Shown in pieces: positions 3,485 through 57,742 of a stretch of DNA of 64,000 bases. Positions within the stretch are counted from its first letter, which is position 1, and each line of letters opens with the position of its first letter. The notes under the pieces are model-generated. The model had not been told where the DNA came from, made no database searches, and saw only the letters and a list, made by a program, of their open reading frames with translations. Source of the DNA: a virus; IMG/VR virus record IMGVR_UViG_3300037296_000220, positions 1 to 64,000 of that record; one strand, written 5' to 3'. Position numbers and translations under genes: made by a program.

Positions 3485-3492
3485 ACCCTCGC

Positions 3493-3521
3493 TTGCAGCT
3501 CTATGTAACACAGATTAAACT
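3493..3521 (+). promoter_or_regulatory. sigma70 promoter with CTATGTAACACAG operator in the spacer
   Basis: TTGCAG-17-TAAACT; operator at 3501-3513. Confidence 0.6.
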
Positions 3522-3554
3522 GACTAAATCATACAAACACACAAGGAAAGAAAC

Positions 3555-3803
3555 ATGGCCACCAGCGAAGCGCAACTCGCCTCCATCGATCGATACACCG
3601 CAAAGTACAAAGCGGCGGGCGTTCGTCGCCTGTCAATCGGCATGACTCAGGAACTCAGAGACAAACTGGATCCGATTTGTGAAGCCAAAGGTATCGTGCA
3701 CGATCGGGGCGCTCAGGTCGGAGAGCCCAACTACGTCAAGGCTCTGATTTTACTGGCTGAAGTGGCAATGGAAGCGGGCCTTGAGGGGCGCATCAAGAAC
3801 TGA
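3555..3803 (+). CDS. Small DNA-binding protein, ribbon-helix-helix-like repressor candidate
   Basis: RRLSIGMTQELRDKLDPIC strand-helix pattern; AAGGA RBS; operator in its own promoter. Confidence 0.55.
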   Translation: MATSEAQLASIDRYTAKYKAAGVRRLSIGMTQELRDKLDPICEAKGIVHDRGAQVGEPNYVKALILLAEVAMEAGLEGRIKN

Positions 3804-4389
3804 CTTTGGCTTCATACGCCACCTCGTCTTCTTTGCGCAGTGGCAGAACGTATCGGTAATAGCTTGACCGACTGATTTTGAACAAGCTCAGAACGTCCTC
3901 CACGGCTGTCTCAGGGTGTGCGTAGATGAAGTCCAGTATTGACCGGGCTTCATCCTTACTCATTGCCCTGGGGCGCCCTCCTACCCTTCCACGCGCCCTT
4001 GCCGCCTTCAGCCCTTCCTTTGTGCGCTCGCTGATCATGTCCGTCTCGAACTCAGAGAGGGCAGCTATCAGGTGAAAGAACAGTTTGCCCGCCGGCGACG
4101 AGGTATCAATGTCCTCTCGAATGCTGATTATATCAATTCCGCGAGTTTGATAGTTTTCGGCAATGGCAATCAGGTTGTGCATCGAGCGACCCAGGCGATC
4201 CAGCTTGAGCACAACCACCTGATCACCCCGGCGCAGATGATCGTTCATGGCCATAAACTGAGGGCGGTCGTTGTTGGTGCCAGTCAGTTTGTCGGTGAAG
4301 ACTTTCTCAGCACCGGCTTTGGCCAGGGCATCGAGCTGCATATCCAGGTTCTGTGACACGGTGGAGACCCGGGCATACCCAAATTTCAT
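3793..4389 (-). CDS. Serine resolvase/invertase
   Basis: GYARVST, KLDRLGRS, GRVGGRP and C-terminal HTH. Confidence 0.95.
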   Translation of the reverse strand: MKFGYARVSTVSQNLDMQLDALAKAGAEKVFTDKLTGTNNDRPQFMAMNDHLRRGDQVVVLKLDRLGRSMHNLIAIAENYQTRGIDIISIREDIDTSSPAGKLFFHLIAALSEFETDMISERTKEGLKAARARGRVGGRPRAMSKDEARSILDFIYAHPETAVEDVLSLFKISRSSYYRYVLPLRKEDEVAYEAKVSS

Positions 4390-4703
4390 TGATTAGCTCC
4401 GAACAAGGCTTTCAACAGGTCGTTCGAGAAGTCCCTCATTTGCTCCTGCAGGGCACCCTGGGCGCTGAACCACCCTTCATTATTGACCAGGGGCAAATCA
4501 ATAGCCTCCCCATCCCACCCTTCGTCAGCTATCTCATAGGGCTGACGGCCGCTCATACGCTGCTCAAACAGGTCGCGTACCCGATCCATATCGAGGAACA
4601 TCATGAAGAATCGCCGCTGCCCGTAGGTGACGATGGTAACGATGTGACCCGGCTTCTCTTGTAGGTCGGCCTCTATGTCCACCCAGCTCAATGTAGTTTG
4701 CAT
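4386..4703 (-). CDS. Hypothetical protein
   Basis: AGGAG RBS; coupled to the resolvase start. Confidence 0.6.
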   Translation of the reverse strand: MQTTLSWVDIEADLQEKPGHIVTIVTYGQRRFFMMFLDMDRVRDLFEQRMSGRQPYEIADEGWDGEAIDLPLVNNEGWFSAQGALQEQMRDFSNDLLKALFGANQ

Positions 4704-4717
4704 GCCTGTCTCCTGCT

Positions 4718-4853
4718 CGTCTCAAAAACGGTTTTTGATTATGAAACTGGATGGTAGCACTGAAACACGTTTTTGACACCGTAGCCATGCGGCCTGAGGC
4801 TCACCTTGAGAGACCGTCTTTTGACTGTCCCAGAAACGATCGTTTGTGACACG
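4718..4853. other. Probable res site
   Basis: Several imperfect inverted repeats of Tn3/Hin type (CGTCTCAAAAACGGTTTTTGA, CTGAAACACGTTTTTGACAC, GTCCCAGAAACGATCGTTTGTGACACG) upstream of the resolvase operon. Confidence 0.6.
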
Positions 4854-4942
4854 ACTGCCTATAGCCGTATTTGACAAAAGTCAGTCGATGTATTACATTT
4901 GTATTACTTCATTCACAGCGAACGCCAAGAGGGCACTACATA

Positions 4943-5206
4943 ATGATGAAGTTGCAAACCAAGCTGCGAAAGTCAGGCAATGCTCAGGTGATTCCTGTGC
5001 CGGCTGCCGCATTAACCGAATTGGGCGTGGAATTGGGTACGGAGTTCACGATGGTTGTCAGCAATGGAAAAATTGAACTTGAGAAGGTCAAACGTCGTTT
5101 GACTGAAGAGGAATTTTTTAAACGGTTGGCAACGGCGGACTTGAGCATTCCAGAGGACACTCGCATCTTTGAGGAAGCGCCCCCTGTTGGAAGAGAGGTA
5201 ATTTAA
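4943..5206 (+). CDS. mazE: AbrB/MazE-family antitoxin
   Basis: KLRKSGNAQVIPVP AbrB signature, directly upstream of a MazF-like toxin. Confidence 0.85.
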   Translation: MMKLQTKLRKSGNAQVIPVPAAALTELGVELGTEFTMVVSNGKIELEKVKRRLTEEEFFKRLATADLSIPEDTRIFEEAPPVGREVI

Positions 5207-5207
5207 T

Positions 5208-5546
5208 TTGAGTCAATCGTACACACCGAAAAGAGGAGACATTGTTTGGATCAACTTTGACCCGAGTACCGGGATCGAAATCAGGAAGCGGAGACCAGCC
5301 CTAGTGGTTTCCGTGACTGCACTGCACCAATATGGATACGCTTTCGTGATTCCAATAACGTCGACCAGTAAAGACCCGGCTTTGTACCCACCCCTGGTGG
5401 GGTTGCGGACGGAAGGACAATTGATTCCGTTCCAATTGGATTCAGTGGATTGGGAAGCCAGGCAGATTGAGTACATTGAGAGCGCACCGGAGAGCCTGGT
5501 CGATGACTGCATCCATATTCTCAAGATGCTGATGAAGATACCGTAA
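5208..5546 (+). CDS. mazF: MazF/PemK endoribonuclease toxin
   Basis: PKRGDIVWINFDP, EIRKRRPALVVS and PITS motifs. Confidence 0.92.
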   Translation: MSQSYTPKRGDIVWINFDPSTGIEIRKRRPALVVSVTALHQYGYAFVIPITSTSKDPALYPPLVGLRTEGQLIPFQLDSVDWEARQIEYIESAPESLVDDCIHILKMLMKIP

Positions 5547-5550
5547 GTGA

Positions 5551-5922
5551 CTGGTGTACTTTGAGAACGCTTTAGCCCGCTAACTGCGGGCTTTTTATTG
5601 GGTGTACTTTGAGAACGCTCTTTAAAAGGTTCGTTTTGTCGAAGTTTTGACCCTTTGCTGGTTGTTTTTTGATCAAAATGAATGGTTTACCTAGAAGAAG
5701 TTAGAACATAGGTTATATACCTATGTTAAAAGAGTTAGAAAGTTAAAGAGTTAAGGGCTGAAAACCCTATATAAAACAAAGACTTACAATTGAAAGCGTT
5801 CTCAAAGTACACCAGTTCCGTTCCCGAAGTACCCCAAAAGCGTTCCCGAAGTACACCAGTTCCGTTCTTCAGGTACACCACCGGCGTTCTTGAAGTACAC
5901 CTCAGCGTTCTCAAAGTACACC
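5551..5922. repeat. Iteron-type replication origin
   Basis: Six direct repeats CGTTCYYVARGTACMCC starting at 5797, 5819, 5841, 5863, 5885 and 5906 (21-22 bp period); two inverted copies at 5551-5573 and 5601-5619; AT-rich tract between them; DnaA-box-like TTGTCCACA at 5968. Confidence 0.88.
5574..5597 (+). terminator. Intrinsic terminator of mazEF
   Basis: AGCCCGC-TAACT-GCGGGCT followed by a T run. Confidence 0.8.
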
Positions 5923-5930
5923 TCGTTCAA

Positions 5931-6836
5931 TCACTCTACAGGCTCTATACCGGGGTTCTCCCCAGGGTTGTCCACAGATTCTGTGGATTGTTTGGGGTAA
6001 AACGTGACGATCTCACGGTCTGAGATGGCGAAATTGTAGTCCAAAATGCCGTTCCCCTGTATCTGACGCAGTTCGAACCGGAACTTGCGTAAGCTGGCGG
6101 AGCCCACCTTGTCGAACAGTTTGGCCATGCCGATCGACCACTCCTTCTGGCGCCCACAATACTTTCGGGCAATCTCATACAGGCGGCGCTCGGTGCCCCG
6201 GGACAGGCGGAAATACTCCCGGTTGTAGGTGAGCACGTTCAGCTCGTTGATTGACTCCATGAACATGGTGTTGATCTTGATGTCCACGTACTCGATGGTG
6301 CTGGCCTCGGTCTCTTCCAGGTCAAACTCAAAGGAGCCGGTATCAATGATCGAGAAGATGGACAGTTTGCCCTTGCCGCGCTGGCCAGGGAGTTTCTTCT
6401 TCTGCATTTCGATCTGGGTACCCTGCAGGCGCAGCAGCGCTTTGCGGAACAGCTCATACTGCTTGCCGCCCTTCTTGCGGTTAGTGGCCTTCAGGAAGTG
6501 GTAGGTGTACACCCGCACCTTCTCGGTGGCCACAATGGAGCGCTCGTTGTGGGGAAGGTCTTTCTCGCCGGCGGACTTCACGCGCTGGTTGTAGTCTTCA
6601 ACGATCTGACTGATGGCGTAAAGCACCAGGTCTTTGTCGAAGATGGTGGCCCGGCCATACTTGCTCGGCACGATCTTCACGGAGATGTGATCGTTCTCCC
6701 ACTCGATGGTTCGGCTATCACTCTGCTTTGACAGGGCAAACATGGGAAATTCCATGCTGTCGCGCTCACCCTTGGTAGCAATGTCCCGGGTGGGCGGCTC
6801 GATCAACGGTAGTGTGAGCTGATTATCAGTCGCCAT
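5931..6836 (-). CDS. repA: Plasmid replication initiator (RepA/RPA family)
   Basis: MEFPMFALSK, GRATIFDKDLVLY and ERRLYEIARKYCG motifs; adjacent iterons. Confidence 0.9.
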   Translation of the reverse strand: MATDNQLTLPLIEPPTRDIATKGERDSMEFPMFALSKQSDSRTIEWENDHISVKIVPSKYGRATIFDKDLVLYAISQIVEDYNQRVKSAGEKDLPHNERSIVATEKVRVYTYHFLKATNRKKGGKQYELFRKALLRLQGTQIEMQKKKLPGQRGKGKLSIFSIIDTGSFEFDLEETEASTIEYVDIKINTMFMESINELNVLTYNREYFRLSRGTERRLYEIARKYCGRQKEWSIGMAKLFDKVGSASLRKFRFELRQIQGNGILDYNFAISDREIVTFYPKQSTESVDNPGENPGIEPVE

Positions 6837-6911: not shown

Positions 6912-7175
6912 ATGAGCCAAAAATACACCATTTACGGGATGCCAGGCTGCTCAGCCTGCACCGCAGCAAAGGCTGCTGTCGAACAGAAAAACGCCCCACA
7001 CGAATACATTGACGTAGTTGCCGCCAACTACACCGCTATCGCGCTCCAGGCTGAACTGGGCGGCATCAACACCCGCACTCTCCCTCAAATTGTTGTCACC
7101 GACGATGAAGGCGTTATGACTTATGTCGGCGGCCTCCCTGATCTGCGCGAGCATTTGAAAACTGTTTCCTTGTAA
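6912..7175 (+). CDS. Glutaredoxin
   Basis: CSAC active site and RTLPQI...YVGG. Confidence 0.88.
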   Translation: MSQKYTIYGMPGCSACTAAKAAVEQKNAPHEYIDVVAANYTAIALQAELGGINTRTLPQIVVTDDEGVMTYVGGLPDLREHLKTVSL

Positions 7176-7207
7176 GTAACCCCTCTGGCCTGTCTGAAAA
7201 GACATTT

Positions 7208-7232
7208 GGGCGGCTTCGGCCGCCCTTTTTTT
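7208..7232 (+). terminator. Intrinsic terminator
   Basis: GGGCGGC-TTCG-GCCGCCC-T7. Confidence 0.85.
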
Positions 7233-7244
7233 GGAGAATTGAAA

Positions 7245-7868
7245 ATGTGGCAAAGACTGTTGTTTGTCCTGCGCTTTTGGATGTTAAACCCGATGCAATC
7301 CCCGCTACCCATCCTGATTCTGATCGCTCTGCTGGTTATCTTGCCCCGCGGCTCCTGGGCTGATGAACGCTGTGAAGAGTTTGCTGCTCTGGAAGATGGC
7401 CAGTTCGCGGTCATGCAGCACGGCTACCAAGTCGGCCGCGAGCATAACCTGGGCTACACCATGGCGGCTCTGGCCCTGCAAGAGAGTGAGTCGGGCAAAT
7501 ACTTGGTCAACCTCAACGACCCCTCCTTCGGCCCCTGGCAAGTCACGGTGGGTAACATTGTGCACTTCCGCGGCGAAGGCCGTGAAGTCAGCGACTGGTC
7601 CCGGGATCGGATGATTGAACGCATGATGACCGACATTCGCTGGTCGGCTGAAACCGCGCTCCAGGTGCTCCTGTACTGGGACGACTATCACAACCGCACC
7701 GGCACCTATGAGTCACTGTCGGAATACTGGGTCAATCTGTGGGGCTCGTACAACGCAGGCATTTACTACTCAGGCACCACCGGCCGGGCCTACGCCGATG
7801 AAGTGCAGCGATTGGTTCGGAACTTGAGTTTGTGCAACGTGTTTGGCTACCTGGAGAGTGGAGTATGA
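7245..7868 (+). CDS. Lytic transglycosylase (SLT/lysozyme-like) with N-terminal hydrophobic segment
   Basis: ALALQES catalytic Glu motif, GPWQV and SYNAG motifs. Confidence 0.75.
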   Translation: MWQRLLFVLRFWMLNPMQSPLPILILIALLVILPRGSWADERCEEFAALEDGQFAVMQHGYQVGREHNLGYTMAALALQESESGKYLVNLNDPSFGPWQVTVGNIVHFRGEGREVSDWSRDRMIERMMTDIRWSAETALQVLLYWDDYHNRTGTYESLSEYWVNLWGSYNAGIYYSGTTGRAYADEVQRLVRNLSLCNVFGYLESGV

Positions 7869-8359
7869 GAATTTCAATGATTTGGGCACAGTCGTCCAAC
7901 GGTATCATCGGTGCCGGCGGCAAGTTGCCCTGGCACATTCCAGGCGATCTGGAGTTCTTCAAGGCGGCAACGCTGAACAAAGTCATCATCATGGGCCGCA
8001 AAACCCATCAAAGCATTGGCCGGGCTCTACCGGGCCGGTTCAACATCGTCGTAACGGGTGATGTGGCCTACGACGCCCCGGGTTGCCTCGTAGTTCACAC
8101 TGTCGATGACGCTCTGGCTGTTGCTCGGCGCCAGGCTACGTCGGAAGCGGTGTTCATCGGGGGCGAGAAGATATACGAAGCAGGTCTCAAACACGCTCAG
8201 AATCTCTACGTCACCCACATTCACCGCGAATACCAGGGCGACACATCGATTCCCGATCTGGATTGGGACGATTGGTGTGAAACCTGGTGCATCGAGGCCC
8301 CAGTAGGGCCAAATAGCATCCCGCACAGCTACCACTCTTACACAAGGAAGGTTCGATAA
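7865..8359 (+). CDS. folA: Dihydrofolate reductase
   Basis: LPWHIPGDL, IIMGRKT, LPGR, FIGG and GDT motifs. Confidence 0.95.
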   Translation: MRISMIWAQSSNGIIGAGGKLPWHIPGDLEFFKAATLNKVIIMGRKTHQSIGRALPGRFNIVVTGDVAYDAPGCLVVHTVDDALAVARRQATSEAVFIGGEKIYEAGLKHAQNLYVTHIHREYQGDTSIPDLDWDDWCETWCIEAPVGPNSIPHSYHSYTRKVR

Positions 8360-8390
8360 TGCAGGTGACATTCCCCAATTCCCAGACTGG

Positions 8391-8663
8391 ATGATCACAA
8401 CCGATCAGTTCAACTTCATCCTGGAACGTCGGATGGTCTACGGCCCAAACAGCAAGAACGCCGGCGATACCTATTGGAAGGCTGAATCGTTTCACCCCTC
8501 CCTGTGTGCCGCCATGCAGAAAATTGTGACCATTGGGACGCTTGCCGCGAGTGATGTGATCAGCGTTGAACAAGTCATCGAGTTCATGCAGCGGCAAGAG
8601 TCTCGTATCGCTGCTGTAGAGCGAAACACAGACGATCAGTGTGAAGCAGTTACTTCAATCTAA
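8391..8663 (+). CDS. Hypothetical phage protein (5' end possibly frameshifted)
   Basis: Co-directional ORF after DHFR; the coupled ATG at 8359 is out of frame. Confidence 0.55.
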   Translation: MITTDQFNFILERRMVYGPNSKNAGDTYWKAESFHPSLCAAMQKIVTIGTLAASDVISVEQVIEFMQRQESRIAAVERNTDDQCEAVTSI

Positions 8664-8839
8664 CGTCGCTTAGAGACGCGCTGTGCGCGTCTTTCCTCTT
8701 GTGTCAATTCATACACCATTCGCAAATGCAAACGGCGTCAAAAATCAAGACGCTAAAGTGTGAACTGCGTCACACACTAAAAGTCTACCAGGCCTCAAAA
8801 TCGATTGTTTGCACCGGGCAAATTTATTCAGAGGTTAAA

Positions 8840-9739
8840 ATGGCCAGAAAGCGTGCCGTCATCGATTTGAGCCCCTACCCAGGTTTATACGTCTCCGAAC
8901 CTTACCGGCGCATATCCGTTCACACCAGCGAAGACCTGATTCGGGGCATCGCTCGCCGGGTTCGTGGCCTGGTAAGAGTCGCCGACCTTAACGTCGAACA
9001 GATCGCCAAAGAGGTGAATGTCTCGATCGAGAAGATACGGGGTGTGCTCAATGTTCGCGAACCGGAGCCTTTCTGCACATCCTTTATGGTAAAGCTGCAC
9101 GAAATGATTTCCAATCGGGACACCTACTCACTACTGGACACCTGGGTTGGCCATGCTCATTCGCTGGACCTGGTCAGCCTCATGTTGACCAATACGCGCA
9201 AAGAGGACCTGCACAGGCTGCTGAACTTCATTACGGTTATCGGAGACAGCAGCGAGCTGCTGCACCCAGAGGATTTGATTTTCACGCCCCAGGTCGACTG
9301 GCGGGATTATCTGGATTCGGGCCGTGATGTCGAGGTGGCCGGCCAGGTGGTGGCCGCCAGAATTAAGGCGGTTCGGCAGACTATGGGTGTATCGAGAGCC
9401 CGGCTGGCCGACATGATTCACGTCTCCAAATCGACCATCCAGAAAATTGAGGAATACGAGCGTCGATGCCCCTTCTATCTGCTGACGATCATCGCACATG
9501 CCCTGGGCATTCCGAGACAGGCCTTCTGGAGCGCGGAGCCGTTTAATTCGCACCTGGTTTATTGCCTGAAAATGTACCAGCAGACCGACGACGTTGGTCG
9601 CAGCTCGATACGGTTAGCCGTTCAAATGGTGACGGCCGCCGCCAGAGGGCGGGAATTTCGGGTTACGGTCGAGGTAAAGGATCGGCGTAGCGGGGATTAT
9701 GAGGTGATGCGAATAGAGGACTATCAGGGGGTTGTGTGA
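8840..9739 (+). CDS. XRE-family HTH transcriptional regulator
   Basis: RIKAVRQTMGVSRARLADMIHVSKSTIQKIE HTH plus a second N-terminal HTH-like segment; GAGG RBS. Confidence 0.8.
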   Translation: MARKRAVIDLSPYPGLYVSEPYRRISVHTSEDLIRGIARRVRGLVRVADLNVEQIAKEVNVSIEKIRGVLNVREPEPFCTSFMVKLHEMISNRDTYSLLDTWVGHAHSLDLVSLMLTNTRKEDLHRLLNFITVIGDSSELLHPEDLIFTPQVDWRDYLDSGRDVEVAGQVVAARIKAVRQTMGVSRARLADMIHVSKSTIQKIEEYERRCPFYLLTIIAHALGIPRQAFWSAEPFNSHLVYCLKMYQQTDDVGRSSIRLAVQMVTAAARGREFRVTVEVKDRRSGDYEVMRIEDYQGVV

Positions 9740-9965
9740 TGTACACTGCTCGCGCTTAAACCTTCCTTCAGTTACCCGGTTCTCAGGTTTTGACCACTTG
9801 ATCACCCGCCGTGTTTGACAGGGCAGCAGGGTAGCGGCAGCGCGAGCATGTTTGCACCCGTCAGAGACGGTGTACCGGTGCGTTTGAGGAGAGAGAACCG
9901 CCCGTTTCAACAAGGTTCGATTATACCAAACTTAGTTGTTGGTGTGTATTGATAAATTTAAGCTA

Positions 9966-10274
9966 TCACAATTCCTCTTTTGCCCAGAAAAAGCCGCATA
10001 GCAGAAAGTAAGCAGAGACCAGGAACAGAACAACCCCAGCCAGGCACTTCGCGACCGTGAGAGTAATTGTGCCCAGGCCGGTCGCCGTCACCCAAATAAA
10101 GCCCTCTGTGCCCACAAAGGTGAGAAACAGCACAACGGCCGCGAGCACCATTACAGCGAGCAGAGCAAGCCCCATGATGACCACAACCGCCAGAGGCATG
10201 AAGATCAGTCCGTAGTAGAGCCCGGTAATGACCTGTTTGATCACCGGGTGCCCGTCAGTCATACAGAATTTCAT
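9966..10274 (-). CDS. Hypothetical membrane protein
   Basis: Strongly hydrophobic ORF at the end of an operon. Confidence 0.6.
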   Translation of the reverse strand: MKFCMTDGHPVIKQVITGLYYGLIFMPLAVVVIMGLALLAVMVLAAVVLFLTFVGTEGFIWVTATGLGTITLTVAKCLAGVVLFLVSAYFLLCGFFWAKEEL

Positions 10275-10406
10275 AAGTCTTCCATCATCTTGCTGTAGAA
10301 AATCGCCTCACCCAGCGTCGCGAAGTCCCGGGACTTGAACAGTCTGCCCCAGAACCCGCGATACACTAGAACCCAACACCCGGGGCTTTCCGGGTGATAC
10401 AGCCAC

Positions 10407-12002: not shown

Positions 12003-12479
12003 GGTCTCTCCTGTTGCTTAGTTAGTTGTTTGTGTGAGCGTTCATAGTAGTGTTTTGCATCTGGCGAGTCTACTGCGGGGTTCGAGTGCCCGTGTGCGTG
12101 CCGGGTGAGCGCGGAGCGCGACTCCCGTCTCGTTGGGTGGGCTGTTGCGGAGTTTCGGCCTTGCCAGCGTTTGCTCAGGCGTCCTTGCCCGTCATCCCCG
12201 TGTGTTTGCGTGGGGTGTCCCTTGCGTCGCTCCTGCGGCCTTACAGGGCGTCCTGGCGGCAGAGCCCGAATTGAAGCCCTGCTGCCCTGCCCTCAGTGCC
12301 CGAAATGTGGCACTTCCAGCGTTTGCACCTTCCATTTCCTACCTGTCCCGGGGTGTGGACGATGTGGTGCGGTTTGGTTGCACGTTGCTGCGGGTATTGG
12401 TTGTTGTGAATGTAGCGGTAATACGGGTATTGAGTGTTTCGGCTCCGGCAAGTTGGCACCGCCCGGGCCACGCAGCATT

Positions 12480-12522
12480 AGCAGTTTCTAAGATGATAAC
12501 GATTATCATATTAGAAACTGCT
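12480..12522. repeat. 43-bp palindrome with Fur-box-like core
   Basis: AGCAGTTTCTAA-G-ATGATAA-CGA-TTATCAT-A-TTAGAAACTGCT. Confidence 0.85.
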
Positions 12523-12538
12523 GTATTAGTGCGTTGCA

Positions 12539-12560
12539 GAGCGCGCACTAATGCGCGCTC
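12539..12560 (-). terminator. Hairpin downstream of 12571..13116
   Basis: Perfect 9-bp stem GAGCGCGCA-CTAA-TGCGCGCTC; no clear U-tract. Confidence 0.5.
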
Positions 12561-12570
12561 ATTGTTGCAC

Positions 12571-13116
12571 TTAGTCGAACAGTGCAATCATTCGCTTGTA
12601 CAATGCTGAATCAGTCTTAAAAGTCATTGTCTGCGTAGACTTCTCATAATCAGCGACATCTAAGAACAAGCAGAAGCGTTTGAAGTAGTTCGCTTGTGTA
12701 TTCGTCTCGTGACTCATAGCGCGCTGTAAAGCGTCGATGCTGATAGATTCAGCATTGTTTACGACGATGACTGTCAGAGCGTTCAGTAATGCTTTATCGA
12801 GCTTGTTCTTGTCAGTCGCAGCAATCGCGTTCAGCGCGCTCATAAGACGCTTTTTCAATTCACGCGACTGATTAACAATTGATTCAGCGTTCAGCTTGAA
12901 CGTGTAGCACACTGCTAGTGCGTCACTGCTCAGCTCTGACAGTTTGCTGTCGTATTTAGCGTGCGTCGCAGAGCGCTGTTGAGCGCGCTTCACGTCTGTG
13001 TCTTTAGTCTCTTCGTACTGACTAGCGAACTGCTCAGAGCGTGTCAGATTGTCACTAGCAGACTGTGACACAGTAGCAGAGAAAGAAGAGATAAAATCAG
13101 TCTTTTTAATAGTCAT
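12571..13116 (-). CDS. Hypothetical Gly/Pro/Trp-free protein, possible C-terminal winged helix
   Basis: AGGA RBS and near-consensus promoter upstream; weak by-eye similarity to the C-terminal half of 28293..29051. Confidence 0.8.
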   Translation of the reverse strand: MTIKKTDFISSFSATVSQSASDNLTRSEQFASQYEETKDTDVKRAQQRSATHAKYDSKLSELSSDALAVCYTFKLNAESIVNQSRELKKRLMSALNAIAATDKNKLDKALLNALTVIVVNNAESISIDALQRAMSHETNTQANYFKRFCLFLDVADYEKSTQTMTFKTDSALYKRMIALFD

Positions 13117-13191
13117 GATAAGTCATCCTAAAACAGTGCAAGTGTGCGACTTGCTTCGCGTTGATTCGCTGCGTTGCGATTCAATAAGTTC

Positions 13192-13220
13192 ATAATAAAG
13201 TCTATGTCGCACACTGTCAA
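13192..13220 (-). promoter_or_regulatory. Strong sigma70 promoter with operator variant in the spacer
   Basis: TTGACA-17-TATTAT; CTATGTCGCACAC at 13202-13214. Confidence 0.8.
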
Positions 13221-13284
13221 ACAAAGTTGTAAGTTTGTTTATATCGCTTTCGCATAGAACGCACGTTCTATATCGGTTTATGTT

Positions 13285-13324
13285 CTATGTAACATAGTGA
13301 CTTTATTAATAGAAAGCGTACTAT
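13285..13324 (+). promoter_or_regulatory. Operator plus promoter of 13359..13652
   Basis: CTATGTAACATAG (13285-13297) abutting GTGACT-16-TACTAT. Confidence 0.6.
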
Positions 13325-13358
13325 ATACGTACACACACAAACGAAAGCGAGTCACATA

Positions 13359-13652
13359 ATGAAAGCTCTTGAGATTGTACGCACTGAACGCGCAGACAAA
13401 GCAGCACGCTACACAGTGCGCGCTATCGTGCGCGACTCTAACAGCGCTCTGAAAGTCGCAACGTTCAATGCACGCATTGCGCAAGATTCCAACTATCACT
13501 TGACCAGCTTCGTTTACAGCGAGTCGCGAAAGCTCCGCGCTATCGCTAAAGCATTCGATCAAGACCGCTTGAACGATTTTTTGATGACTGTTGAACAGTT
13601 GCTTTTTAGAGCGTACCGCTCAGACACTGAACGACAATTGTCCGCATTCTGA
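13359..13652 (+). CDS. Hypothetical Gly/Pro/Trp-free basic protein
   Basis: AGCGAG RBS-like site, own promoter, downstream hairpin at 13673-13709. Confidence 0.7.
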   Translation: MKALEIVRTERADKAARYTVRAIVRDSNSALKVATFNARIAQDSNYHLTSFVYSESRKLRAIAKAFDQDRLNDFLMTVEQLLFRAYRSDTERQLSAF

Positions 13653-13736: not shown

Positions 13737-14120
13737 AGCTTTATTGAATCAGAGCGAGATTGAAATCAGCCAAAAACCGAATTTTGACAAGTCACCACGG
13801 CACGCACGCAACCGCGAGTGAAAACCGCTCCTGCGCCGCATTCCTGGCCATTCCCGTTTCCGCTCGCCGTTTCGAGGCCGCGGCACTACCACCCTTATTA
13901 CTTCGGTGCCTTATACCTATAGCCGCTCCTATAGGAAAAACCCGCGGCTCCCCGCCCTATGGCGTACCTTGGGCCGTTTCCTATGGCGGCCCCTATAGGA
14001 AAACCCCAGGCCGTTCCCTATGGCCGCTTACTGGCAAACCATGGTGTCCCGGGTGCACTGAACCCATGGGCTCACCACGGCTGCAGATCCCCTTGGCCCC
14101 ACCAGGGCTTTTCTTCAGGC

Positions 14121-14145
14121 AAAAAGAAACCCGCACTGAGCGGGT
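14121..14145 (-). terminator. Intrinsic terminator
   Basis: ACCCGC-TCAGT-GCGGGT-TTCTTTTT on the minus strand. Confidence 0.8.
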
Positions 14146-14362
14146 CAAAGGTTTTTAGGATGTCTTTCTGATTACGCCCGCACAGACCTGGTACCGCGCC
14201 CGGAACAAAGGTCAGTTTGGTCAGTGCTCGATGCAGGGCCGATAAGCGAGAGAACCGGCCTTACTGAGCGTCCACACAACACTTGAACACCTGGCTGTCT
14301 GATAACCCTATCTGAGTCGAATCAATCCAGCGTGTCTGCTCTGTTAGTCTGTGCGAGCGATG
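14121..14362 (-). ncRNA. Putative structured non-coding RNA
   Basis: -10 TATACT at 14369-14374; 14-bp closing stem 14346-14359/14175-14188; internal hairpins; no AUG; terminator at 14121-14145. Confidence 0.6.
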
Positions 14363-14638
14363 AAATGAAGTATACAGCGCTTTGATAGTTAATCACTACT
14401 GGGCCTCAGTCCCTGTTAGGTAGTCACTATAGTCGTCACGGAGCTGCTATAGGTGTATGCGTGGGAGCCGGGGTGGGACGGACCGTCATTATACGCGTAT
14501 GCCGGTGAGAGAAAGACCGTCATTGACAGCGTCTGAGAGCGTGCTGAGTGAACGGGGTGCTGTGAGTGCTACGTGTGTACTAACTGAGTGTGGGAACGTG
14601 CTTGCAGACGTGCTCAGCGTGCTTCCCTGCACTGCCCT

Positions 14639-14839
14639 TTAGCGTGATTGACGTGCTGCGCGTATCAGTCGAGCAATCTCATCCTGGTACGCTTGTTGAG
14701 CGGGGCTCAAAGTGGGCTTGTAGCGATTGTACTGCTTGGGCTTGTTCTTAGGTGGCAGCACTGTGGTCAGTGGAAACTGCTCAGCCTGTTGTTGCAGGTC
14801 TTCGTGGATCTCATTGCGTGTGTTGGGACCGATGGACAT
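14639..14839 (-). CDS. Small hypothetical protein (paralog of 15405..15587)
   Basis: Shared NTRN, TVLPPKxKPK and TLSPAQQxYQDE motifs. Confidence 0.8.
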   Translation of the reverse strand: MSIGPNTRNEIHEDLQQQAEQFPLTTVLPPKNKPKQYNRYKPTLSPAQQAYQDEIARLIRAARQSR

Positions 14840-14983
14840 AGGGTCTCACTTAGTTGTGTGTGTTGTGTGTGCAGGCGTGATTGTAACCACGGGTAAGGCG
14901 CTGTAAAGGTTCAAACAGACGCCGCGGCCCCCCCAAGGGTGTCTATCACTGTTTCAAACGGGGCATAAGCCCCGTCAGAGCGA

Positions 14984-15229
14984 TTACAGCAGGGACGCTT
15001 GCTCTTCCCAGAACGCTTGCTCTTCGAGCGGTTCAAACTGCATGTTTTGCAGCATGTCCCAGGCCATCTCTTTCTCGGCCTCGATCTGACGCTGACGGTC
15101 TTCCCAGACTGTGTCTTCATCCCACTCTTTGGCCCAGTGCTCGATGTCGTCCTGGCGATCCTCTTCTTCAGCATCAAACTGAGCGGTCAGGTAGTCCAGG
15201 TCGCGGGTTTCGTTGTATTGAATGGTCAT
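14984..15229 (-). CDS. Small highly acidic protein
   Basis: Own CCACAG-type promoter and AGCGAG RBS; D/E/W-rich. Confidence 0.7.
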   Translation of the reverse strand: MTIQYNETRDLDYLTAQFDAEEEDRQDDIEHWAKEWDEDTVWEDRQRQIEAEKEMAWDMLQNMQFEPLEEQAFWEEQASLL

Positions 15230-15404
15230 GATGTGTCTCGCTGTGCTTGTGTGTAAGTACACTCTAAGCAGCTGACAGAGGCACTTCTACTGTGGCAACA
15301 GGTTCACCAGTGCGACACCAGGCTGAAGCCACGGGACTACCGCGGGACTACCGCGGCTGTGACTGCACTGAACAGACCCGGTGAAAGCCGGGTCATTTGA
15401 GTGG

Positions 15405-15587
15405 TTACTTCAGACGCTTCAGTTCATCCTGGTACGACTGCTGAGCGGGGCTCAGTGTTGCGGTGTATGTGCTGCGCACTTTCGGCTTTTTCTTAGGTGG
15501 CAGCACAGTGATCTGACCGCCCCAGTTGCTGCTCTGCTGCTCTATAGCGTCGTGTTCTGCGTTGCGTGTGTTTTGCATGATGCTCAT
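15405..15587 (-). CDS. Small hypothetical protein (paralog of 14639..14839)
   Basis: Same motifs as its paralog; own CCACAG-type promoter. Confidence 0.8.
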   Translation of the reverse strand: MSIMQNTRNAEHDAIEQQSSNWGGQITVLPPKKKPKVRSTYTATLSPAQQSYQDELKRLK

Positions 15588-15899
15588 AGTGGTATCTCGC
15601 TGTGCGCGCTCTCAGAGCGCTTGTGTGTGATGTCTCAATCGACAGACACATGATGACAAGCGCTGAGAGGCGTCTCTACTGTGGCAACTGGCGAGCCAGA
15701 CAGCAGCCGCGGGAGCGCCAAGGGACACCACGGGGAGGCACAGCCGCGGTATGACCATGGCTCCCCGTGGTTCACCAGACGCCGCGGCACTCCCACGGCG
15801 GCACCGCTGTTTAAAAATGGCAGTGCACATCACGGCACTGCCATTCTCACCTAATCTACCCAGCCCCTCATACCTATGGCGGTCCCTATAGGAAATCCA

Positions 15900-16466
15900 T
15901 TACTCGTCACGCTGCCGTTGGTAGCCCTGCTCAGCTTCCTGGGTGCGCAACTTAGCAAAAGCATCCAGATCCGCCCGATCCCAGCCCTTGCGGGCCAGTA
16001 TCATCCCCATGCGACCCAGGGCTTCTGCGTGGCGTTTATCTTCGTCGACGCAGTAATCCCATTCACTCCCGAACATATAGGTCCACAGGTCACCAAATCG
16101 TTCATTCATCACCTGGTCTGAGAACTGCGGTGGGCCGTACAGCTCCGGGTTCAAGTCCCGGCTCAGTGCCCCATGACCCAGGACACACGCAGTGCTGCCA
16201 CAGGGAAACAAGCAGTGCTTCACCGTCAGCTTGGAGTTGGACTGACAAGAGTTTTCGACCATCAACTGATGAAAATCGGGCACCAGCTCTGATATATCCT
16301 GAGACAGGCGGTAGTAGCTGCTCATTCTCACCGTCTCAGGCTTCACGTTGTCACGCAGATGCTCATAGAGCCGCTGCAACAGATCCCAGTTGACCCCGTT
16401 CTCTGCGTGCTCCCCATACGCGTGTGTACCTGCCGGGGTGGGATGGACCGTCGTTTCTACTGGCAT
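15900..16466 (-). CDS. Hypothetical protein with CGSTACxxGH motif
   Basis: Tandem paralog of 16457..16960. Confidence 0.75.
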   Translation of the reverse strand: MPVETTVHPTPAGTHAYGEHAENGVNWDLLQRLYEHLRDNVKPETVRMSSYYRLSQDISELVPDFHQLMVENSCQSNSKLTVKHCLFPCGSTACVLGHGALSRDLNPELYGPPQFSDQVMNERFGDLWTYMFGSEWDYCVDEDKRHAEALGRMGMILARKGWDRADLDAFAKLRTQEAEQGYQRQRDE

Positions 16467-16960
16467 GAGTCAATGTCCTCTATTGCTGCTGTGAGGCTGG
16501 ACCGCTGATGAAAGGCGTGCTCTGCCACCTCTTTCATACGGTTGTAATCCATTGTCGGCAACAGCTCGATGGCTTCATCCAGGCGGGCTATGGCGCTGAC
16601 CCACTGCTTCTGGGGTGGGATGTCGTTGCTGTTGCTGTCTACAGACCATTCACCTGAGAACAGAAAGTCCCAGATACAGCCACTCTCTTTCGCACCCAGC
16701 ACCTGCGCTACAAATTTACGCGGAGCTAGCTTCAGAGGGTTCAGCTCAGGATTCAGGCAGGCATGGCCAATCACACAAGCGGTGCTACCACAAGGGAACG
16801 CTTTACCGTTCCAGGAATTGATATAGTTCTGGTTGTGTCGTTGTCGCACACCACTAAAGAAGGTGCCGATGTGAAACTGCTCATGGTTCACTTGCTCAGC
16901 CAGGAACGTTCGCAACCACTTCAGGTTCTTGATGTTCACCTTATGTGCGCCCATGCTCAT
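16457..16960 (-). CDS. Hypothetical protein with CGSTACxxGH motif
   Basis: Tandem paralog of 15900..16466. Confidence 0.75.
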   Translation of the reverse strand: MSMGAHKVNIKNLKWLRTFLAEQVNHEQFHIGTFFSGVRQRHNQNYINSWNGKAFPCGSTACVIGHACLNPELNPLKLAPRKFVAQVLGAKESGCIWDFLFSGEWSVDSNSNDIPPQKQWVSAIARLDEAIELLPTMDYNRMKEVAEHAFHQRSSLTAAIEDIDSCQ

Positions 16961-17178
16961 GAGGTCACCTCACTCGGGACAGTCGTCAAACCGTTGTGAC
17001 GCAGGTCATTGAGAAACAGAAAGTTCTCGACCTGGTCCTGATCCCAGTCGGTCACAATCTCCAGGGCCTTTGGCTCTTCGTGAATCACGGGAATGGCCCG
17101 CTTGCCACTCAGCCCACCCATGACCAACTCTTTGTCGACCTTGTGGGCGAACTCAATACGGTGTCGCTGCATCTTCAT
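16957..17178 (-). CDS. Hypothetical protein
   Basis: GAGG RBS within the dispersed leader motif. Confidence 0.7.
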   Translation of the reverse strand: MKMQRHRIEFAHKVDKELVMGGLSGKRAIPVIHEEPKALEIVTDWDQDQVENFLFLNDLRHNGLTTVPSEVTS

Positions 17179-17255
17179 GTAAACCTCACTTACTTGTTTG
17201 TGTGTTTAGAGAGTATCGCAGCACACATGAGGCACTGCAACACTGGGTCGCGCTT

Positions 17256-17618
17256 TTACTCTGGCACCCACTCACCCACCTTATGCACCAACTGATGCAG
17301 CTGACCCACTGTCATCGTGGCTGGGAGTGTGTCGCCGTTACTGTACTTGTACCCGGTCACAATCAATGTCCCGATCAATACGCTGGCCAATGTATCTGCG
17401 ATCCAGCTCACCTGAAACAGGGGCGAGCCTTCTTCAGCGGTGAACATCGCGTCATCGTCTGCCCAGACACAGTGATCATTCCCAATGTAGCCTGCCCCGG
17501 TCACAGTCTGGCAGCCGATCTCCTGGTACAGGGAGGTCAACACCTCGTCCGGGTTCAGCTCCACCTCTACCACCTGAGTGGGCTCACCCGGCTCTGCCAT
17601 GATCTTTAACGCTCGCAT
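17256..17618 (-). CDS. DUF3846-like hypothetical protein
   Basis: GGAG RBS before MRALKI; LYQEIGC...WADDDA...GTLIVTG pattern. Confidence 0.65.
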   Translation of the reverse strand: MRALKIMAEPGEPTQVVEVELNPDEVLTSLYQEIGCQTVTGAGYIGNDHCVWADDDAMFTAEEGSPLFQVSWIADTLASVLIGTLIVTGYKYSNGDTLPATMTVGQLHQLVHKVGEWVPE

Positions 17619-18332
17619 TGTTCTCTCCAATCGTCGCGGGAACCATTCTCGAACCGCGTGGTTGTCAGGTTTGTCAAAATGCCCTTTCTCAATTTGAGCA
17701 CTGAAAACAGTATAAATCAGTGAAACTGGGGTAGATACGTTGGGAAATGGGGCACCGATCGAGTGACAGCCGCGGCAGTTCCATGGGGTCGAGCGGTCAG
17801 GAGGGGCCGTGGGGCTACCGTGGCGGCACCTGATCCCGGGCTCCCTGTGGGCGGTGCTGGCTGGTTGCGAGTGGGATAATACGGGCATTACAGCGGGATA
17901 GCGGGGTGTTGCGGAGTACCGGTGTGCCAGGGTTGACTTTGACTGTGGCGCGGCGCGCGCCGATTTCACGCTACCCCCCGCAATACCATTCCTATCCTTA
18001 CTCTTCTGTTCATACTCTCTGGTGCTTTACCTCTATGAACTAACTGATTGTGCTCTCTATGGTTCTTTCTTCCCTGATTGATTGTTTCCCTTACGTTTAT
18101 TCTTATGGTTCTCTCTACAGCTCTGGCTCTCCCGGGTTCTCCTATTGGTTTGCTACCCTTTCCCGAATTTCCTTTTTCGTCTACAGGTTCATTCTCTAGG
18201 CAGTTGTACCGGGTGTATCGTTTTCTACCTTTCCACTACGTTTGTGGCCTGTTCCTCAGTTGCCACTGGTGAAGCTTATACCCTTTGTGGCCTGAGCCCT
18301 AGCGCAACAATCTGTATTAGGTGTCGGCTTGT

Positions 18333-25838: not shown

Positions 25839-26567
25839 TCAGGCAGCTTCGGAGGTTTCTTCTTTGATAGGAATGCCCAGGGCTTCGTTCAGGCCCGGGT
25901 CGATGATGGCAGGCAGGTTGCTCTCGTCGGCCACATCGTCTTTTGGAATCAGGTCTTTCGCTTCTGGCCACTTCTCCAGCAACGTTTTCACGGTTGTGCT
26001 GCGATTGACCAGTTGTTTCACCAGAAGCATCCGGTCGTCGAGCTGTCCCACCATATCGTCGAGCTGTTTGGTGCAATGCTTGATCAGGCGGATTTCATTG
26101 CTGAACCGTTGCTTAAATTCTTTGTGATCCATTGTGAACTGAACGGCGTTTAAGTAACACCTGCGAACGTCAAAGACCCCATTGTCGTCCTGGTTCAACA
26201 CCTTCGATGATTCAATGTAGGAAGAGCCCCCGAGCGCTTCCAGCACGTTGAACACGCGCAACTCGGTGTGGTCCAGAAGCTCCATTCGGTGCGATGGCAG
26301 CTTGATATACACCAAGTTATGTTTTACGTCTCTGATGCAGATAGCCTCTACCTCCATCTGGCGCAGTCTGACGGCGCCAGAAGCCATAAAGCTCTCGACA
26401 AGCTCATCGTAATTGTCCGGCAGCAACTCCTTGATGATGCTCTGACCCGCTGCATACAGCATCTTGCTTACGATGGTGAAGTCCGGGCGAGCGCTATTCA
26501 TCAGTCGCTCTTCAGCCGTGCGCACGATGCCCTGCTTGATGCTTTTGTTCAGTCTGCGTGTAGCCAT
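25839..26567 (-). CDS. Nmad5-like (nucleotide-modification associated domain 5) protein
   Basis: N-terminal RLNKSIKQGI and C-terminal TTVKTLLEKWPEA pattern. Confidence 0.65.
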   Translation of the reverse strand: MATRRLNKSIKQGIVRTAEERLMNSARPDFTIVSKMLYAAGQSIIKELLPDNYDELVESFMASGAVRLRQMEVEAICIRDVKHNLVYIKLPSHRMELLDHTELRVFNVLEALGGSSYIESSKVLNQDDNGVFDVRRCYLNAVQFTMDHKEFKQRFSNEIRLIKHCTKQLDDMVGQLDDRMLLVKQLVNRSTTVKTLLEKWPEAKDLIPKDDVADESNLPAIIDPGLNEALGIPIKEETSEAA

Positions 26568-32518: not shown

Positions 32519-33493
32519 TTACACCGCAATCGGTGCTTTGATGGCTGGCAGCGGGCTGTAGTTGGTCACTTCAAAGTCGTCACTCTCGTATTCCCAGGGA
32601 TTCTTGGGTATCGAGTCGATCACTATTTGGGGCCTGTCTGAGGTCAGCTCACGTTCATCGTTTTCCCAGTTGAACAGCAACTCTTTGGCCTGCTCGAAGT
32701 GGTTGGTGTACAAGTGCGTATCGCCGAAGCTGTGAATGAACTCGTAAGGCACCATGTTCACTGATTTGGCGATGATGTGCGTCAGCAAGGCATAGCTGGC
32801 AATGTTGAACGGCGCACCCAGGAACCAGTCAGCGCTGCGCTGGTACAGATGGCAGGACAGGTAACGCTTGGGAACACCCAGCTTGTCAAACTGTTCGATC
32901 GGCACTCTGTACTCACGCAGATGCGGCATGTTGATTGCCACCCATTGAAAACGTTGGCGCTCATTCATCAGGTGCGTATAGAACTGAAACATCGTATGAC
33001 ACGGTGCCAGAGCCATCAGACCGGCGGAGGCGTTTGCTTGAGGACTGATGGTTTCATCCGGTAGCTCACCCGGGTTCCAGGCTGAAATGATGTGCCGGCG
33101 GCTATCAGGTTTGCTATTGAGGCCGTCCAGCAGCACCTGTAATTGATCAATACTGCCAATGTTGGGCGTTTCCCAGCTACGCCACTGCTTGCCGTAGACC
33201 GGGCCCAGGTCACCCTTTGGGTTGGCCCACTCGTTCCAGATTTTGACGTTGTTCGCTTGCAGATAACCGATGTTGGTCTCACCACGCAGGAACCAGATCA
33301 GTTCGTGAATGATGGGGCGTATTGCGGTGAACTTCGCTTCAAGCAAAGGGAAGGATTCAGTCAGGTCGAAGCGCATGTGATGGCCGAAGATGGAACTGGT
33401 GCCAGTACCAGTGCGGTCGTCTTTGATGATGCCGTTATTGAGCAAGCGCTCAAGATGATCGATATACTGGATGTCGACGGTGTTGTTCAGCAT
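32519..33493 (-). CDS. thyA: Thymidylate synthase
   Basis: DRTGTGT, MALAPCH, QRSAD, PFNIASY and HLY motifs. Confidence 0.97.
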   Translation of the reverse strand: MLNNTVDIQYIDHLERLLNNGIIKDDRTGTGTSSIFGHHMRFDLTESFPLLEAKFTAIRPIIHELIWFLRGETNIGYLQANNVKIWNEWANPKGDLGPVYGKQWRSWETPNIGSIDQLQVLLDGLNSKPDSRRHIISAWNPGELPDETISPQANASAGLMALAPCHTMFQFYTHLMNERQRFQWVAINMPHLREYRVPIEQFDKLGVPKRYLSCHLYQRSADWFLGAPFNIASYALLTHIIAKSVNMVPYEFIHSFGDTHLYTNHFEQAKELLFNWENDERELTSDRPQIVIDSIPKNPWEYESDDFEVTNYSPLPAIKAPIAV

Positions 33494-38847: not shown

Positions 38848-39217
38848 CAGATTGTTCCTCCAAGTGGGATACGCAGTAGTCCAGCATCCGGTCAATTTCA
38901 TCATCACCAAACAGATCGAGTGCTGTTTTGAGCCGGAGGGTCGATTCGTACTTGTCGCACACTAGGTGCACCAGCATTTCATCAACCCCGTCTATGTTGC
39001 CTACCGTCAGTTTGTCTACATCAACCACCGTGTCAGCGTCGAACGTGATCATGGTGGTTGGGACTTCGTCGTCTACAGCATGGTGGCCGGCGGCGCCCGC
39101 TTGAGTGAACGCCAGCCGGGTCTTTGTGTGAACCTTGAGCGGGTAGATTCCTCCAGCTCTGGCAAGGCCACGACCCGCTTTAGACCAGGCACCCTTATCC
39201 CTATAGGTTTCCTTCAT
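38810..39217 (-). CDS. Hypothetical protein ending YGIWG
   Basis: GAGG RBS. Confidence 0.7.
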   Translation of the reverse strand: MKETYRDKGAWSKAGRGLARAGGIYPLKVHTKTRLAFTQAGAAGHHAVDDEVPTTMITFDADTVVDVDKLTVGNIDGVDEMLVHLVCDKYESTLRLKTALDLFGDDEIDRMLDYCVSHLEEQSDGNGYPEYGIWG

Positions 39218-39229
39218 GGTAAATTCCTC

Positions 39230-57739: not shown

Positions 57740-57742
57740 TTG

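Follow-up and report, generated by a model that had tools for sequence, protein, structure and literature searches.

Why should one short, near-palindromic word crowd into the gaps between a few small phage genes and be removed from the genes around them? The question is raised by a stretch of 64,000 nucleotides (hereafter the window), the first 64 kb of the 102,534-bp viral record IMGVR_UViG_3300037296_000220 of IMG/VR, in which CCNNGG hexamers are spaced by one turn of the helix in the intergenic gaps between 13,795 and 17,850. The word that matters proves to be CCDHGG, in which base 3 is not C and base 4 is not G. We consider, with a probability of roughly 0.55, that these arrays are docking sites for a candidate DNA-binding protein that organizes a terminal-repeat and pre-early gene module.

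A preliminary description of this locus had listed the CCNNGG positions, counted nine copies in 13,940–14,110 and noted that the spacers between hexamers vary, and it is accurate on all three points. Shuffled sequence had been named there as a control, and both the density and the 11-bp spacing stand above it. In the five intergenic gaps pooled (1,296 bp), CCNNGG occurs 31 times against 10.1 ± 3.0 expected, and 10 pairs are spaced by 11 bp against 0.08 expected; none of 2,000 dinucleotide-preserving shuffles of these gaps reached 10 such pairs, the maximum being 4. Genome-wide, 12 of the 16 CCNNGG pairs at 10 or 11 bp fall in 14,064–17,818. When 1,024 gapped four-letter words were scanned without prior selection, CC..GG ranked first for 10–11-bp pairing, both here and in two relatives.

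The refinement of the motif rests on the central bases. The centers of array hexamers are GC, AC/GT, AT or AA/TT, and never carry C3 or G4. CCDHGG occurs 82 times genome-wide; 26 of these copies are in this 4-kb stretch, where the word is 11-fold denser, and all 11 CCDHGG pairs of the genome at 10–12 bp are found within 13,795–17,850. The C3 or G4 forms of CCNNGG are not enriched in this stretch (0.9-fold) and form no pairs there. Chance or simple segmental duplication as the origin of the arrays is excluded by these statistics, together with the persistence of arrays between unrelated genes in three lineages.

The arrays also occupy a regular place in the transcription units. On the coding (minus) strand, the module of terminator, array, promoter and small gene occurs five times, with the arrays downstream of terminators and 15–160 bp upstream of five promoter regions. 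The features of the block are as follows:

13,795–14,107: array block 1, with CCDHGG at 13,795, 13,878, 13,942, 13,967, 14,039, 14,064/14,075 and 14,091, intermixed with CCTATRG pairs
14,091–14,107, plus strand: terminator-like hairpin at array block 1
14,128–14,146, minus strand: hairpin resembling an intrinsic terminator, preceding array block 1 along transcription
14,639–14,839, minus strand: small orphan gene
14,880–14,907, minus strand: sigma-70-type promoter TTTACA-16-TACAAT of gene 14,639–14,839, just downstream of array 2
14,887–14,938: array 2, with the pair CCGCGG-N5-CCAAGG at 14,922/14,933, 15 bp upstream of the −35 hexamer, and a single CCACGG at 14,887 within the promoter spacer
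14,960–14,973, minus strand: terminator-like hairpin GGGGC-loop-GCCCC, read from the sequence, after gene 14,984–15,229 and before array 2
14,984–15,229, minus strand: small orphan gene
15,287–15,299, minus strand: conserved GTTGCCACAGTAG box of the promoter downstream of array 3
15,329–15,356: array 3, with CCACGG, CCGCGG and CCGCGG at exact 11-bp steps
15,375–15,394, minus strand: terminator-like hairpin after gene 15,405–15,587 and before array 3
15,405–15,587, minus strand: small orphan gene
15,676–15,688, minus strand: second copy of GTTGCCACAGTAG, downstream of array 4
15,707–15,798: array 4, with eight hexamers in three groups and a 37-bp super-period
15,817–15,844, minus strand: strong terminator hairpin with T-run, after gene 15,900–16,466 and before array 4
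15,900–16,466, 16,457–16,960 and 16,957–17,178, minus strand: three small orphan genes
17,256–17,621, minus strand: small orphan gene for a DUF3846 protein
17,770–17,823: array 5, with the pairs 17,770/17,781 and 17,807/17,818, 37 bp apart, upstream of the first small gene of the block

At array block 1, the transcription that runs leftward meets that which runs rightward. The seven small genes contain 0 copies of CCDHGG. Two pairs of them are paralogous (14,639–14,839 with 15,405–15,587, and 15,900–16,466 with 16,457–16,960), and cassettes of the block have therefore been duplicated; the arrays beside the paralogous copies differ in number and sequence.

Within pairs and triplets, the hexamers are one turn apart and lie on the same helix face, and neighboring groups are offset by 16–17, 26–27 or 37–38 bp. 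Because of these offsets, the distances in this phage fit a half-turn period (5.25 bp, R = 0.66) and not a period of 10.5 bp (R = 0.13), so that the lattice on one helix face that had been proposed for the block is not found here. A one-face period of 10.5 bp does fit the arrays of Rhizobium phage RHEph10.

Array 4 introduces a structural alternative. Its whole 100 bp (15,700–15,805) form an imperfect palindrome, and the minus-strand fold reaches −68.6 kcal/mol (z −5.4), 12 kcal/mol better than the plus strand by virtue of G–U pairs; this palindrome could be a cruciform, or the hairpin of a read-through RNA after the terminator. Extended to all arrays, the idea is that they act as nucleic-acid structure, either as hairpins, in RNA or DNA, that reinforce the terminators or as intrinsically bent GC-type elements that boost the next promoter; a location 50–160 bp upstream of promoters speaks for this idea. 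We hold this to be very improbable. Structure is not a general explanation, because the other arrays fold like shuffles (z +1.5 to −2.2 for arrays 1, 3 and 5, which leaves one of four arrays significant) and because many pairs, such as CCAAGG with CCAAGG, cannot base-pair, which excludes the hairpin reading for all pairs. Moreover, six hexamers follow one another in direct orientation in RHEph10, conservation is confined to the CC and GG letters and does not extend to the variable spacers, and a structural role leaves unexplained the removal of the word from genes that is described below.

The gene set marks this virus as a predicted large siphovirus. It encodes a DnaE-type polymerase, ribonucleotide reductase, SbcCD, a UvsX-like recombinase, ligase, primase and CobS/CobT-like proteins, along with genes of plasmid type: a RepA initiator (PF10134), a resolvase, parA/parB, and two ParB_N proteins beside a helicase. 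Nearly all genes from 102 kb down to 14.6 kb are on the minus strand. The nearest cultured relatives, with a DnaE identity of only 38–43%, are Pseudomonas phage nickie and the Rhizobium phages B1VFA, V1VFA-S, RHEph10 and the RHph_ series; gene order is shared with B1VFA in reversed orientation. The stretch from 13.7 to 18 kb has no DNA similarity among 50,697 phage records. A search of IMG/VR with three proteins revealed no close relatives, but only two distant DUF3268 loci (L006 and L007); protein searches matched only the phage's own 188-amino-acid protein, and the best match of its DUF3268 neighbor was 42% identical.

Conservation in relatives had been named as a check on the arrays, and CCDHGG arrays do recur at a syntenic place in cultured Rhizobium phages, namely B1VFA, V1VFA-S, RHEph10, RHph_X66, N1_10 and Y2_11. 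A pattern search found that the CCDHGG pairs at 10–11 bp are bunched in one stretch of 2.5–3.5 kb in each of the following genomes of 115–122 kb:

B1VFA, 39,656–42,264: array stretch with 8 of 11 pairs
RHph_X66, 3,084–6,483: array stretch with 9 of 12 pairs
N1_10, 7,043–9,375: array stretch with 7 of 13 pairs
RHEph10, 95,931–98,745: array stretch with 9 of 13 pairs, including six hexamers in a row at 10 bp
Y2_11, 7,798–10,358: array stretch with 8 of 9 pairs

The syntenic place is the end of the block of genes that run one way, beside a region of mixed orientation with the helicase and the two ParB_N genes, and the order of terminator, arrays, promoter and gene is the same in B1VFA and RHEph10. 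The small genes between the arrays of the relatives are not homologous to those here, and neither set matches an informative family. The exclusion of C3 and G4 is also shared, since D–H centers were found in all 31 array hexamers counted in B1VFA and RHEph10. Between B1VFA and V1VFA-S, which are about 91% identical in this region, 20 of 21 intergenic hexamers are kept, the single loss being a deletion, and not one of 80 CC/GG positions is substituted, compared with a divergence of 8.7% at the remaining intergenic positions. In this one lineage, the array hexamers are thus under purifying selection. No CCNNGG arrays were found in nickie, Stenotrophomonas phage ANB28, Xanthomonas phage JGB6 or a Klebsiella phage-plasmid; ANB28 has four pairs in or between structural genes, two of which are perfect hairpins by reading of the sequence.

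Small dimers that bind cooperatively leave just such a signature, a short near-palindromic word whose outer C:G pairs are fixed, whose center is free and whose copies are one turn apart; among the ribbon-helix-helix proteins, Arc, ParR of plasmid R1, ParG and omega are examples of this mode of binding. We infer from this likeness that the reader of the arrays is a protein, most plausibly with this fold. Each CCDHGG hexamer would be a small site of two-fold symmetry, sized for one dimer, with the outer C:G pairs specified and the two central pairs nearly free. Hexamers 10–11 bp apart would place dimers on one face of the helix and in reach of each other; neighboring groups are half-integer turns away, and a spacer once filled would thus be bent or wrapped. 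The arrays fill every terminator-to-promoter spacer of a 4-kb block of small, autonomously transcribed orphan genes. The bound protein would organize this module; it could insulate or shut off the pre-early cassettes, and it could mark the repeat for steps at the genome end such as packaging, circularization or plasmid partition. The idea of protein docking put forward in the preliminary description thus agrees with the anatomy and the conservation of the block, but in its geometry it has to give way to pairs on alternating faces.

Several plasmid systems offer models for such arrays. In omega of pSM19035, repeat arrays serve both as operators of several promoters and as centromeres (parS1–3, at PcopS, Pdelta and Pomega). 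Like these, and like the parH sites of ParG in TP228 (type Ib), the arrays here are runs of a short word at regular spacing upstream of several promoters within a few kilobases. The omega and ParG arrays are read cooperatively by small dimers, which is proposed here only by analogy. The word differs, being a 6-bp CCDHGG at 10–11 bp and not contiguous 7-bp heptads or ACTC boxes; furthermore, the arrays here follow terminators in a probable phage terminal repeat, and this phage has type Ia parA/parB, with no ParG homolog found by tblastn. By analogy, omega would nonetheless be the closest working model. The Rhizobium relatives come nearer to it, as they encode a small ParA and a ParG/ribbon-helix-helix (RHH)-like protein about 3.5 kb from the arrays. 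In RHEph10, gp155, a ParA of 213 amino acids, is followed by gp154, which matches RHH_10 (5e-5) and ParG (3e-4) and has a homolog in V1VFA-S; gp154 is hence a candidate array reader in the relatives. B1VFA_069 is ParG-like as well. This type Ib-like pair (ParA of 213 amino acids, ParG/RHH-like protein of 87–92) was located as follows:

L022, 10,264–11,180: RHEph10 gp154/gp155
L025, 9,352–9,615: second type Ib-like locus

A further resemblance is to parC/ParR of R1 and stbDR/StbA of R388, where two sets of 11-bp-phased direct repeats flank or precede a promoter. There too, short repeats at one-turn spacing stand near a promoter, and they form a higher-order nucleoprotein complex. However, the arrays here are many small groups of two or three sites on alternating faces in five gaps, as opposed to two sets of five; their site center is degenerate, and no parM/parR or stbABC is adjacent.

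The second half of the question concerns the genes from which the word is missing. Outside the array block, CCDHGG occurs 54 times against 208 ± 11 expected from synonymous-codon shuffles within each gene (genes being simple open-reading-frame calls), a 4-fold depletion; the count for the window only is 42 against 149 ± 11.5. This purge, seen in one genome only, is specific. Among 16 XC[DH]GY classes, CC[DH]GG alone is strongly depleted (ratio 0.26, the others 0.71–1.23), all nine CCDHGG variants are affected, the C3 or G4 forms are at or above expectation, and other CC-gap-GG spacings are unaffected. Codon choice bears the same mark: Pro-Trp is written CCC-TGG in 7 of 8 cases, and a codon ending in C precedes [C-D-H][GGN] in 2 of 64 cases, though 34% of codons end in C. 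The depletion also varies along the genome:

7,574–13,794: CCDHGG-free stretch of 6.2 kb on the other side of the arrays, holding a CC/GG desert at 12,470–13,488 (0 against 9.4 expected in genes)
17,824–55,530: CCDHGG-free stretch of 37.7 kb with early and middle genes for replication and nucleotide metabolism (0 against 68.5 ± 6.7 expected in genes)
55,531–57,858, plus strand: island of four copies in or beside the type Ia parA/parB genes
57,859–66,395, running past the window end at 64,000: CCDHGG-free stretch (0 against 17.4 expected in genes)

The three free stretches sum to about 53 kb, in whose genes about 95 copies were expected and 0 were seen, and the par island holds the only non-array CCDHGG between 7.6 and 66.4 kb. 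In the late genes, depletion is 2.4-fold (37 against 88.6 expected), and the first 7.6 kb have 9 copies against 20 expected. A ranking of all hexamers gave zero for the CCDHGG members in the early/middle domain and found them present in the other half, while GAATTC, AGATCT, GACGTC, AAGCTT and CAGCTG are purged equally in both halves. In B1VFA, V1VFA-S and RHEph10, there is no purge, with CCDHGG ratios of 0.83–0.92 and no long site-free gaps.

The purge shows that single hexamers, too, are read in vivo in this phage, at a cost that is high where early and middle genes are concerned and is less in the late genes and the plasmid genes. Since the purged class is the array class, including the C3/G4 exclusion that is also present in the arrays of the relatives, the simplest view would be that the same reader is behind both. 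The arrays, conserved across three lineages whether purged or not, must therefore have a function of their own that is independent of the purge. A roadblock or titration cost of single hexamers is possible, because total absence requires effective selection and not lethality. It had been suggested that desert and lattice form one system that partitions the genome by CC/GG content. The first half of this idea gains from the finding that the array word is purged from a 59-kb domain around the arrays; the second does not agree with a purge that is specific to the hexamer and with the enrichment of CCNGG-containing forms.

Beside these results, the desert itself (12,470–13,488) was seen to lie inside the larger hexamer-free stretch, directly beside array block 1, and its complete lack of CC/GG exceeds the CCDHGG purge. 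Six-bp palindromes are also widely avoided genome-wide, with 0 copies each of GAGCTC, AGATCT, AGTACT and GAATTC, 1 copy each of CTCGAG, GACGTC and GATATC (2 when both strands are listed), and 13 of CAGCTG against 67 expected (26 when both strands are listed). The ratio is 0.68 for GGNCC, which is depleted, and 1.34 for the enriched CCNGG.

Such a purge recalls restriction, and the main rival to docking is that CCDHGG is the target of a restriction-like nuclease, either of the host or made early by the phage, an explanation that we regard as possible but unlikely. The word would have been removed from every region whose DNA has to survive uncut and be expressed early, and the arrays would be sites where cuts are harmless or useful, between complete units of a redundant terminal repeat; they might serve as decoys or as programmed cut points that release or circularize incoming DNA, as in Davison's proposal for A1/A2 of T5. 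The complete and word-specific absences, the Pro-Trp codons, the genome-wide avoidance of many 6-bp palindromes (GAATTC, AGATCT and GAGCTC at 0 copies) and the lack of array hexamers in the block genes all accord with a nuclease. So do parallels in T5, where sites in the first-entering DNA are cut and later DNA is protected, and where A1 has been proposed to be a restriction-like protein whose cuts fall at palindromes in both terminal repeats (bioRxiv 10.1101/866236). As in the first-step-transfer DNA of T5, which lacks EcoRI sites, a near-palindromic word has been removed by synonymous codons, and most fully from early DNA.

Yet plain avoidance does not account for the same word being concentrated 11-fold in phased arrays, nor for a depletion that is not uniform over the genome: CCDHGG is purged by domain, whereas the other palindromes are purged genome-wide. 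The CCDHGG specificity matches that of arrays conserved in relatives without a purge, and 26 sites at the genome end would be a liability against a plain restriction enzyme. Enzymes that recognize CCNNGG would also cut the C3/G4 forms, which are enriched in this phage, and the genes scanned with Pfam or PHROGs yielded neither such a nuclease nor a methyltransferase. To our knowledge, no type II enzyme has CCDHGG specificity.

A bolder version, which we consider distinctly doubtful, has a CCDHGG reader split the chromosome into three zones, namely a word-free early/middle domain of 59 kb, a late/plasmid domain where the word is rare, and a terminal repeat with phased arrays between cassettes; the phage would either make this reader itself, in the form of a restriction-like nuclease or nickase, or exploit a defense enzyme in that role. 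If so, the arrays would be points of programmed cleavage, release, protection or circularization of incoming DNA, and the site-free domain would survive while host DNA is destroyed. This would be a sequence-defined version of the hypothetical model in which A1 is a restriction enzyme in the two-step injection of T5.

What links the arrays to a terminal repeat is the layout of B1VFA. Both B1VFA and V1VFA-S have fixed ends with direct terminal repeats, of 3,605 bp in the former and of 3,939 bp in the latter, although only the lengths of the repeats and not their positions were reported (PMC12509600). The two genomes were aligned, and each 3,605-bp window of B1VFA was scored by the extra length of its V1VFA-S counterpart. 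A counterpart longer by 334 ± 10 bp was found only for windows starting at 39,194–39,808 (0.65% of windows). The repeat of B1VFA would then span from about 39.2–39.8 kb to 42.8–43.4 kb, which is the array block with its small genes. By analogy, the array block here is probably the direct terminal repeat and the pre-early module. In SPO1 and T5, too, the terminal repeats carry small orphan genes grouped in blocks and equipped with host-type promoters and terminators of their own. GC skew does not turn at the arrays, the two inferred boundaries of the repeat share no word in either B1VFA or V1VFA-S, and the nickie record has neither a terminal duplication nor an analogous array. The link to the terminal repeat and the purge are what is new here.

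If the block is a terminal repeat, the arrays might instead be packaging signals that are read by the terminase and slow or stop the motor for the end cut in the right-hand repeat. Stray hexamers would have been purged from the half of the chromosome presumed to enter the capsid last, at a stage when a slow motor is capable of cutting. In a linear map bounded by two repeat copies, a 48-kb site-free zone comes directly before one of them and the site-bearing late and plasmid genes fall mid-map, a DNA-binding protein resembling the small terminase adjoins TerL, and short repeat arrays beside the terminal repeat of T7 are a known parallel. We nevertheless find packaging improbable as the function of the arrays: B1VFA has 435 single hexamers genome-wide and still packages fixed ends, such ends need one cut site and not arrays in five gaps over 4 kb, and terminase-like proteins are also kept in relatives without arrays.

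The motif arrays at the junction of the T7 terminal repeat (160 bp) and the injection-stop region of T5 are similar to the arrays here, in that motifs crowd in or near a direct terminal repeat with pre-early genes; the function of these T7 and T5 arrays is still debated. The terminal repeat of T5 contains a repeat-rich injection-stop region (bioRxiv 10.1101/866236). That region is a series of DnaA boxes in a large untranslated region, unlike the arrays here, which lie between genes and are made of another word, and the terminal repeat is in this case only inferred. There are no DnaA boxes in 13.7–18.4 kb, and TTWTNCACA occurs once in 64 kb, at 29,215. Of the earlier idea of a packaging or injection-stop signal, the part that concerns a genome end is thus indirectly favored by the probable identity of the block with a terminal repeat, and an injection stop of the DnaA-box type is not seen.

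Returning to docking by a protein, a number of observations weigh against it. No binder was identified in this phage, in which tblastn revealed no ParG-like homolog; its par genes are of type Ia (a ParA of 369 amino acids and a ParB_N/HTH protein of 324), and the ‘12571 product’, which had been named as a possible binder, has no detectable family. The ParB_N and small-terminase-like proteins common to the relatives also occur in array-less relatives. A binding protein alone does not obviously explain why early and middle genes are free of hexamers here, when hundreds are tolerated in B1VFA and RHEph10, and the long palindrome of array 4 has its better fold on the transcribed strand. As for the terminal repeat, its placement in B1VFA depends on two lengths taken from the literature, of which one is an estimate from coverage, and at ± 20 bp a second region, inside structural genes, fits as well. 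The one DNA sequencing run that contains the phage, a salt-lake metagenome that is probably its source, gave one circular contig (102,414 bp) with flat depth and no ends; no RNA run was among those listed. A 127-bp repeat at the ends of the record looks, from its length, like a circular assembly overlap and not a true terminal repeat.

Even so, the arrays supply a precise DNA target, CCDHGG in 10–11-bp pairs, for a presumed reader protein. The clade on which this reader would act, made up of large siphoviruses that resemble phage-plasmids, has cultured members among the Rhizobium phages, so that pull-down and genetics would be possible. The arrays probably coincide with the direct terminal repeat and the pre-early ‘takeover’ genes, whose organization is poorly understood in phages with direct terminal repeats. 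The early and middle genes have lost the word entirely over about 53 kb and the late genes have not, which shows recognition of the sequence with a temporal or positional logic and may bear on two long-standing questions in T5: why the first-needed DNA is site-free and how ends are processed.

Other repeats and features were noted in and around the block. A second repeat family consists of CCTATRG pairs 12 bp apart, followed by AAA (13,916–13,998, 14,017 and 15,873–15,891), which are placed between a stop codon and its terminator or arranged as inverted pairs; they resemble the CTATAGAG/CCTAGAGAG repeats in the leaders of B1VFA and RHEph10. In all three lineages, a T-poor, A/C/G-rich non-coding stretch of 300–400 bp with YAGAGAG-type repeats precedes the first array:

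18,000–18,330 of the window, minus strand: T-poor YAGAGAG stretch
L012, 3,300–3,650: T-poor YAGAGAG stretch
L022, 3,250–3,560: T-poor YAGAGAG stretch

In the Rhizobium phages, TTTACA/TGTTGACA boxes are clustered ahead of this stretch and may represent early promoters of the genome end. Promoters for a T7-like RNA polymerase, suggested by CCTATAGG, were rejected, as no such polymerase is found among the large proteins.

Gene 14,984–15,229 (minus strand) encodes 81 residues, of which about 40% are Asp or Glu, with several Trp and no family match; by analogy with Ocr, it is conceivably the kind of small protein that is able to mimic DNA. A 44-bp tandem repeat at 5,793–5,901 adjoins the RepA (PF10134) gene at 5,931–6,836 and is probably a plasmid-type origin with iterons, distinct from the CCDHGG arrays. 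RepA iterons are excluded as an explanation of the arrays, as they lie at this other location. The window has no Rfam match and no tRNA.

Finally, a modified base in the DNA of the phage, which could bear on its restriction behavior, is hinted at by four predicted proteins taken together: a protein with the ‘nucleotide modification associated’ domain Nmad5, a long thymidylate-synthase homolog, a guanylate-kinase-like (dNMP kinase-like) protein and DHFR. They are encoded at 25,839–26,567, 32,519–33,493, 59,220–59,903 and 7,865–8,359.

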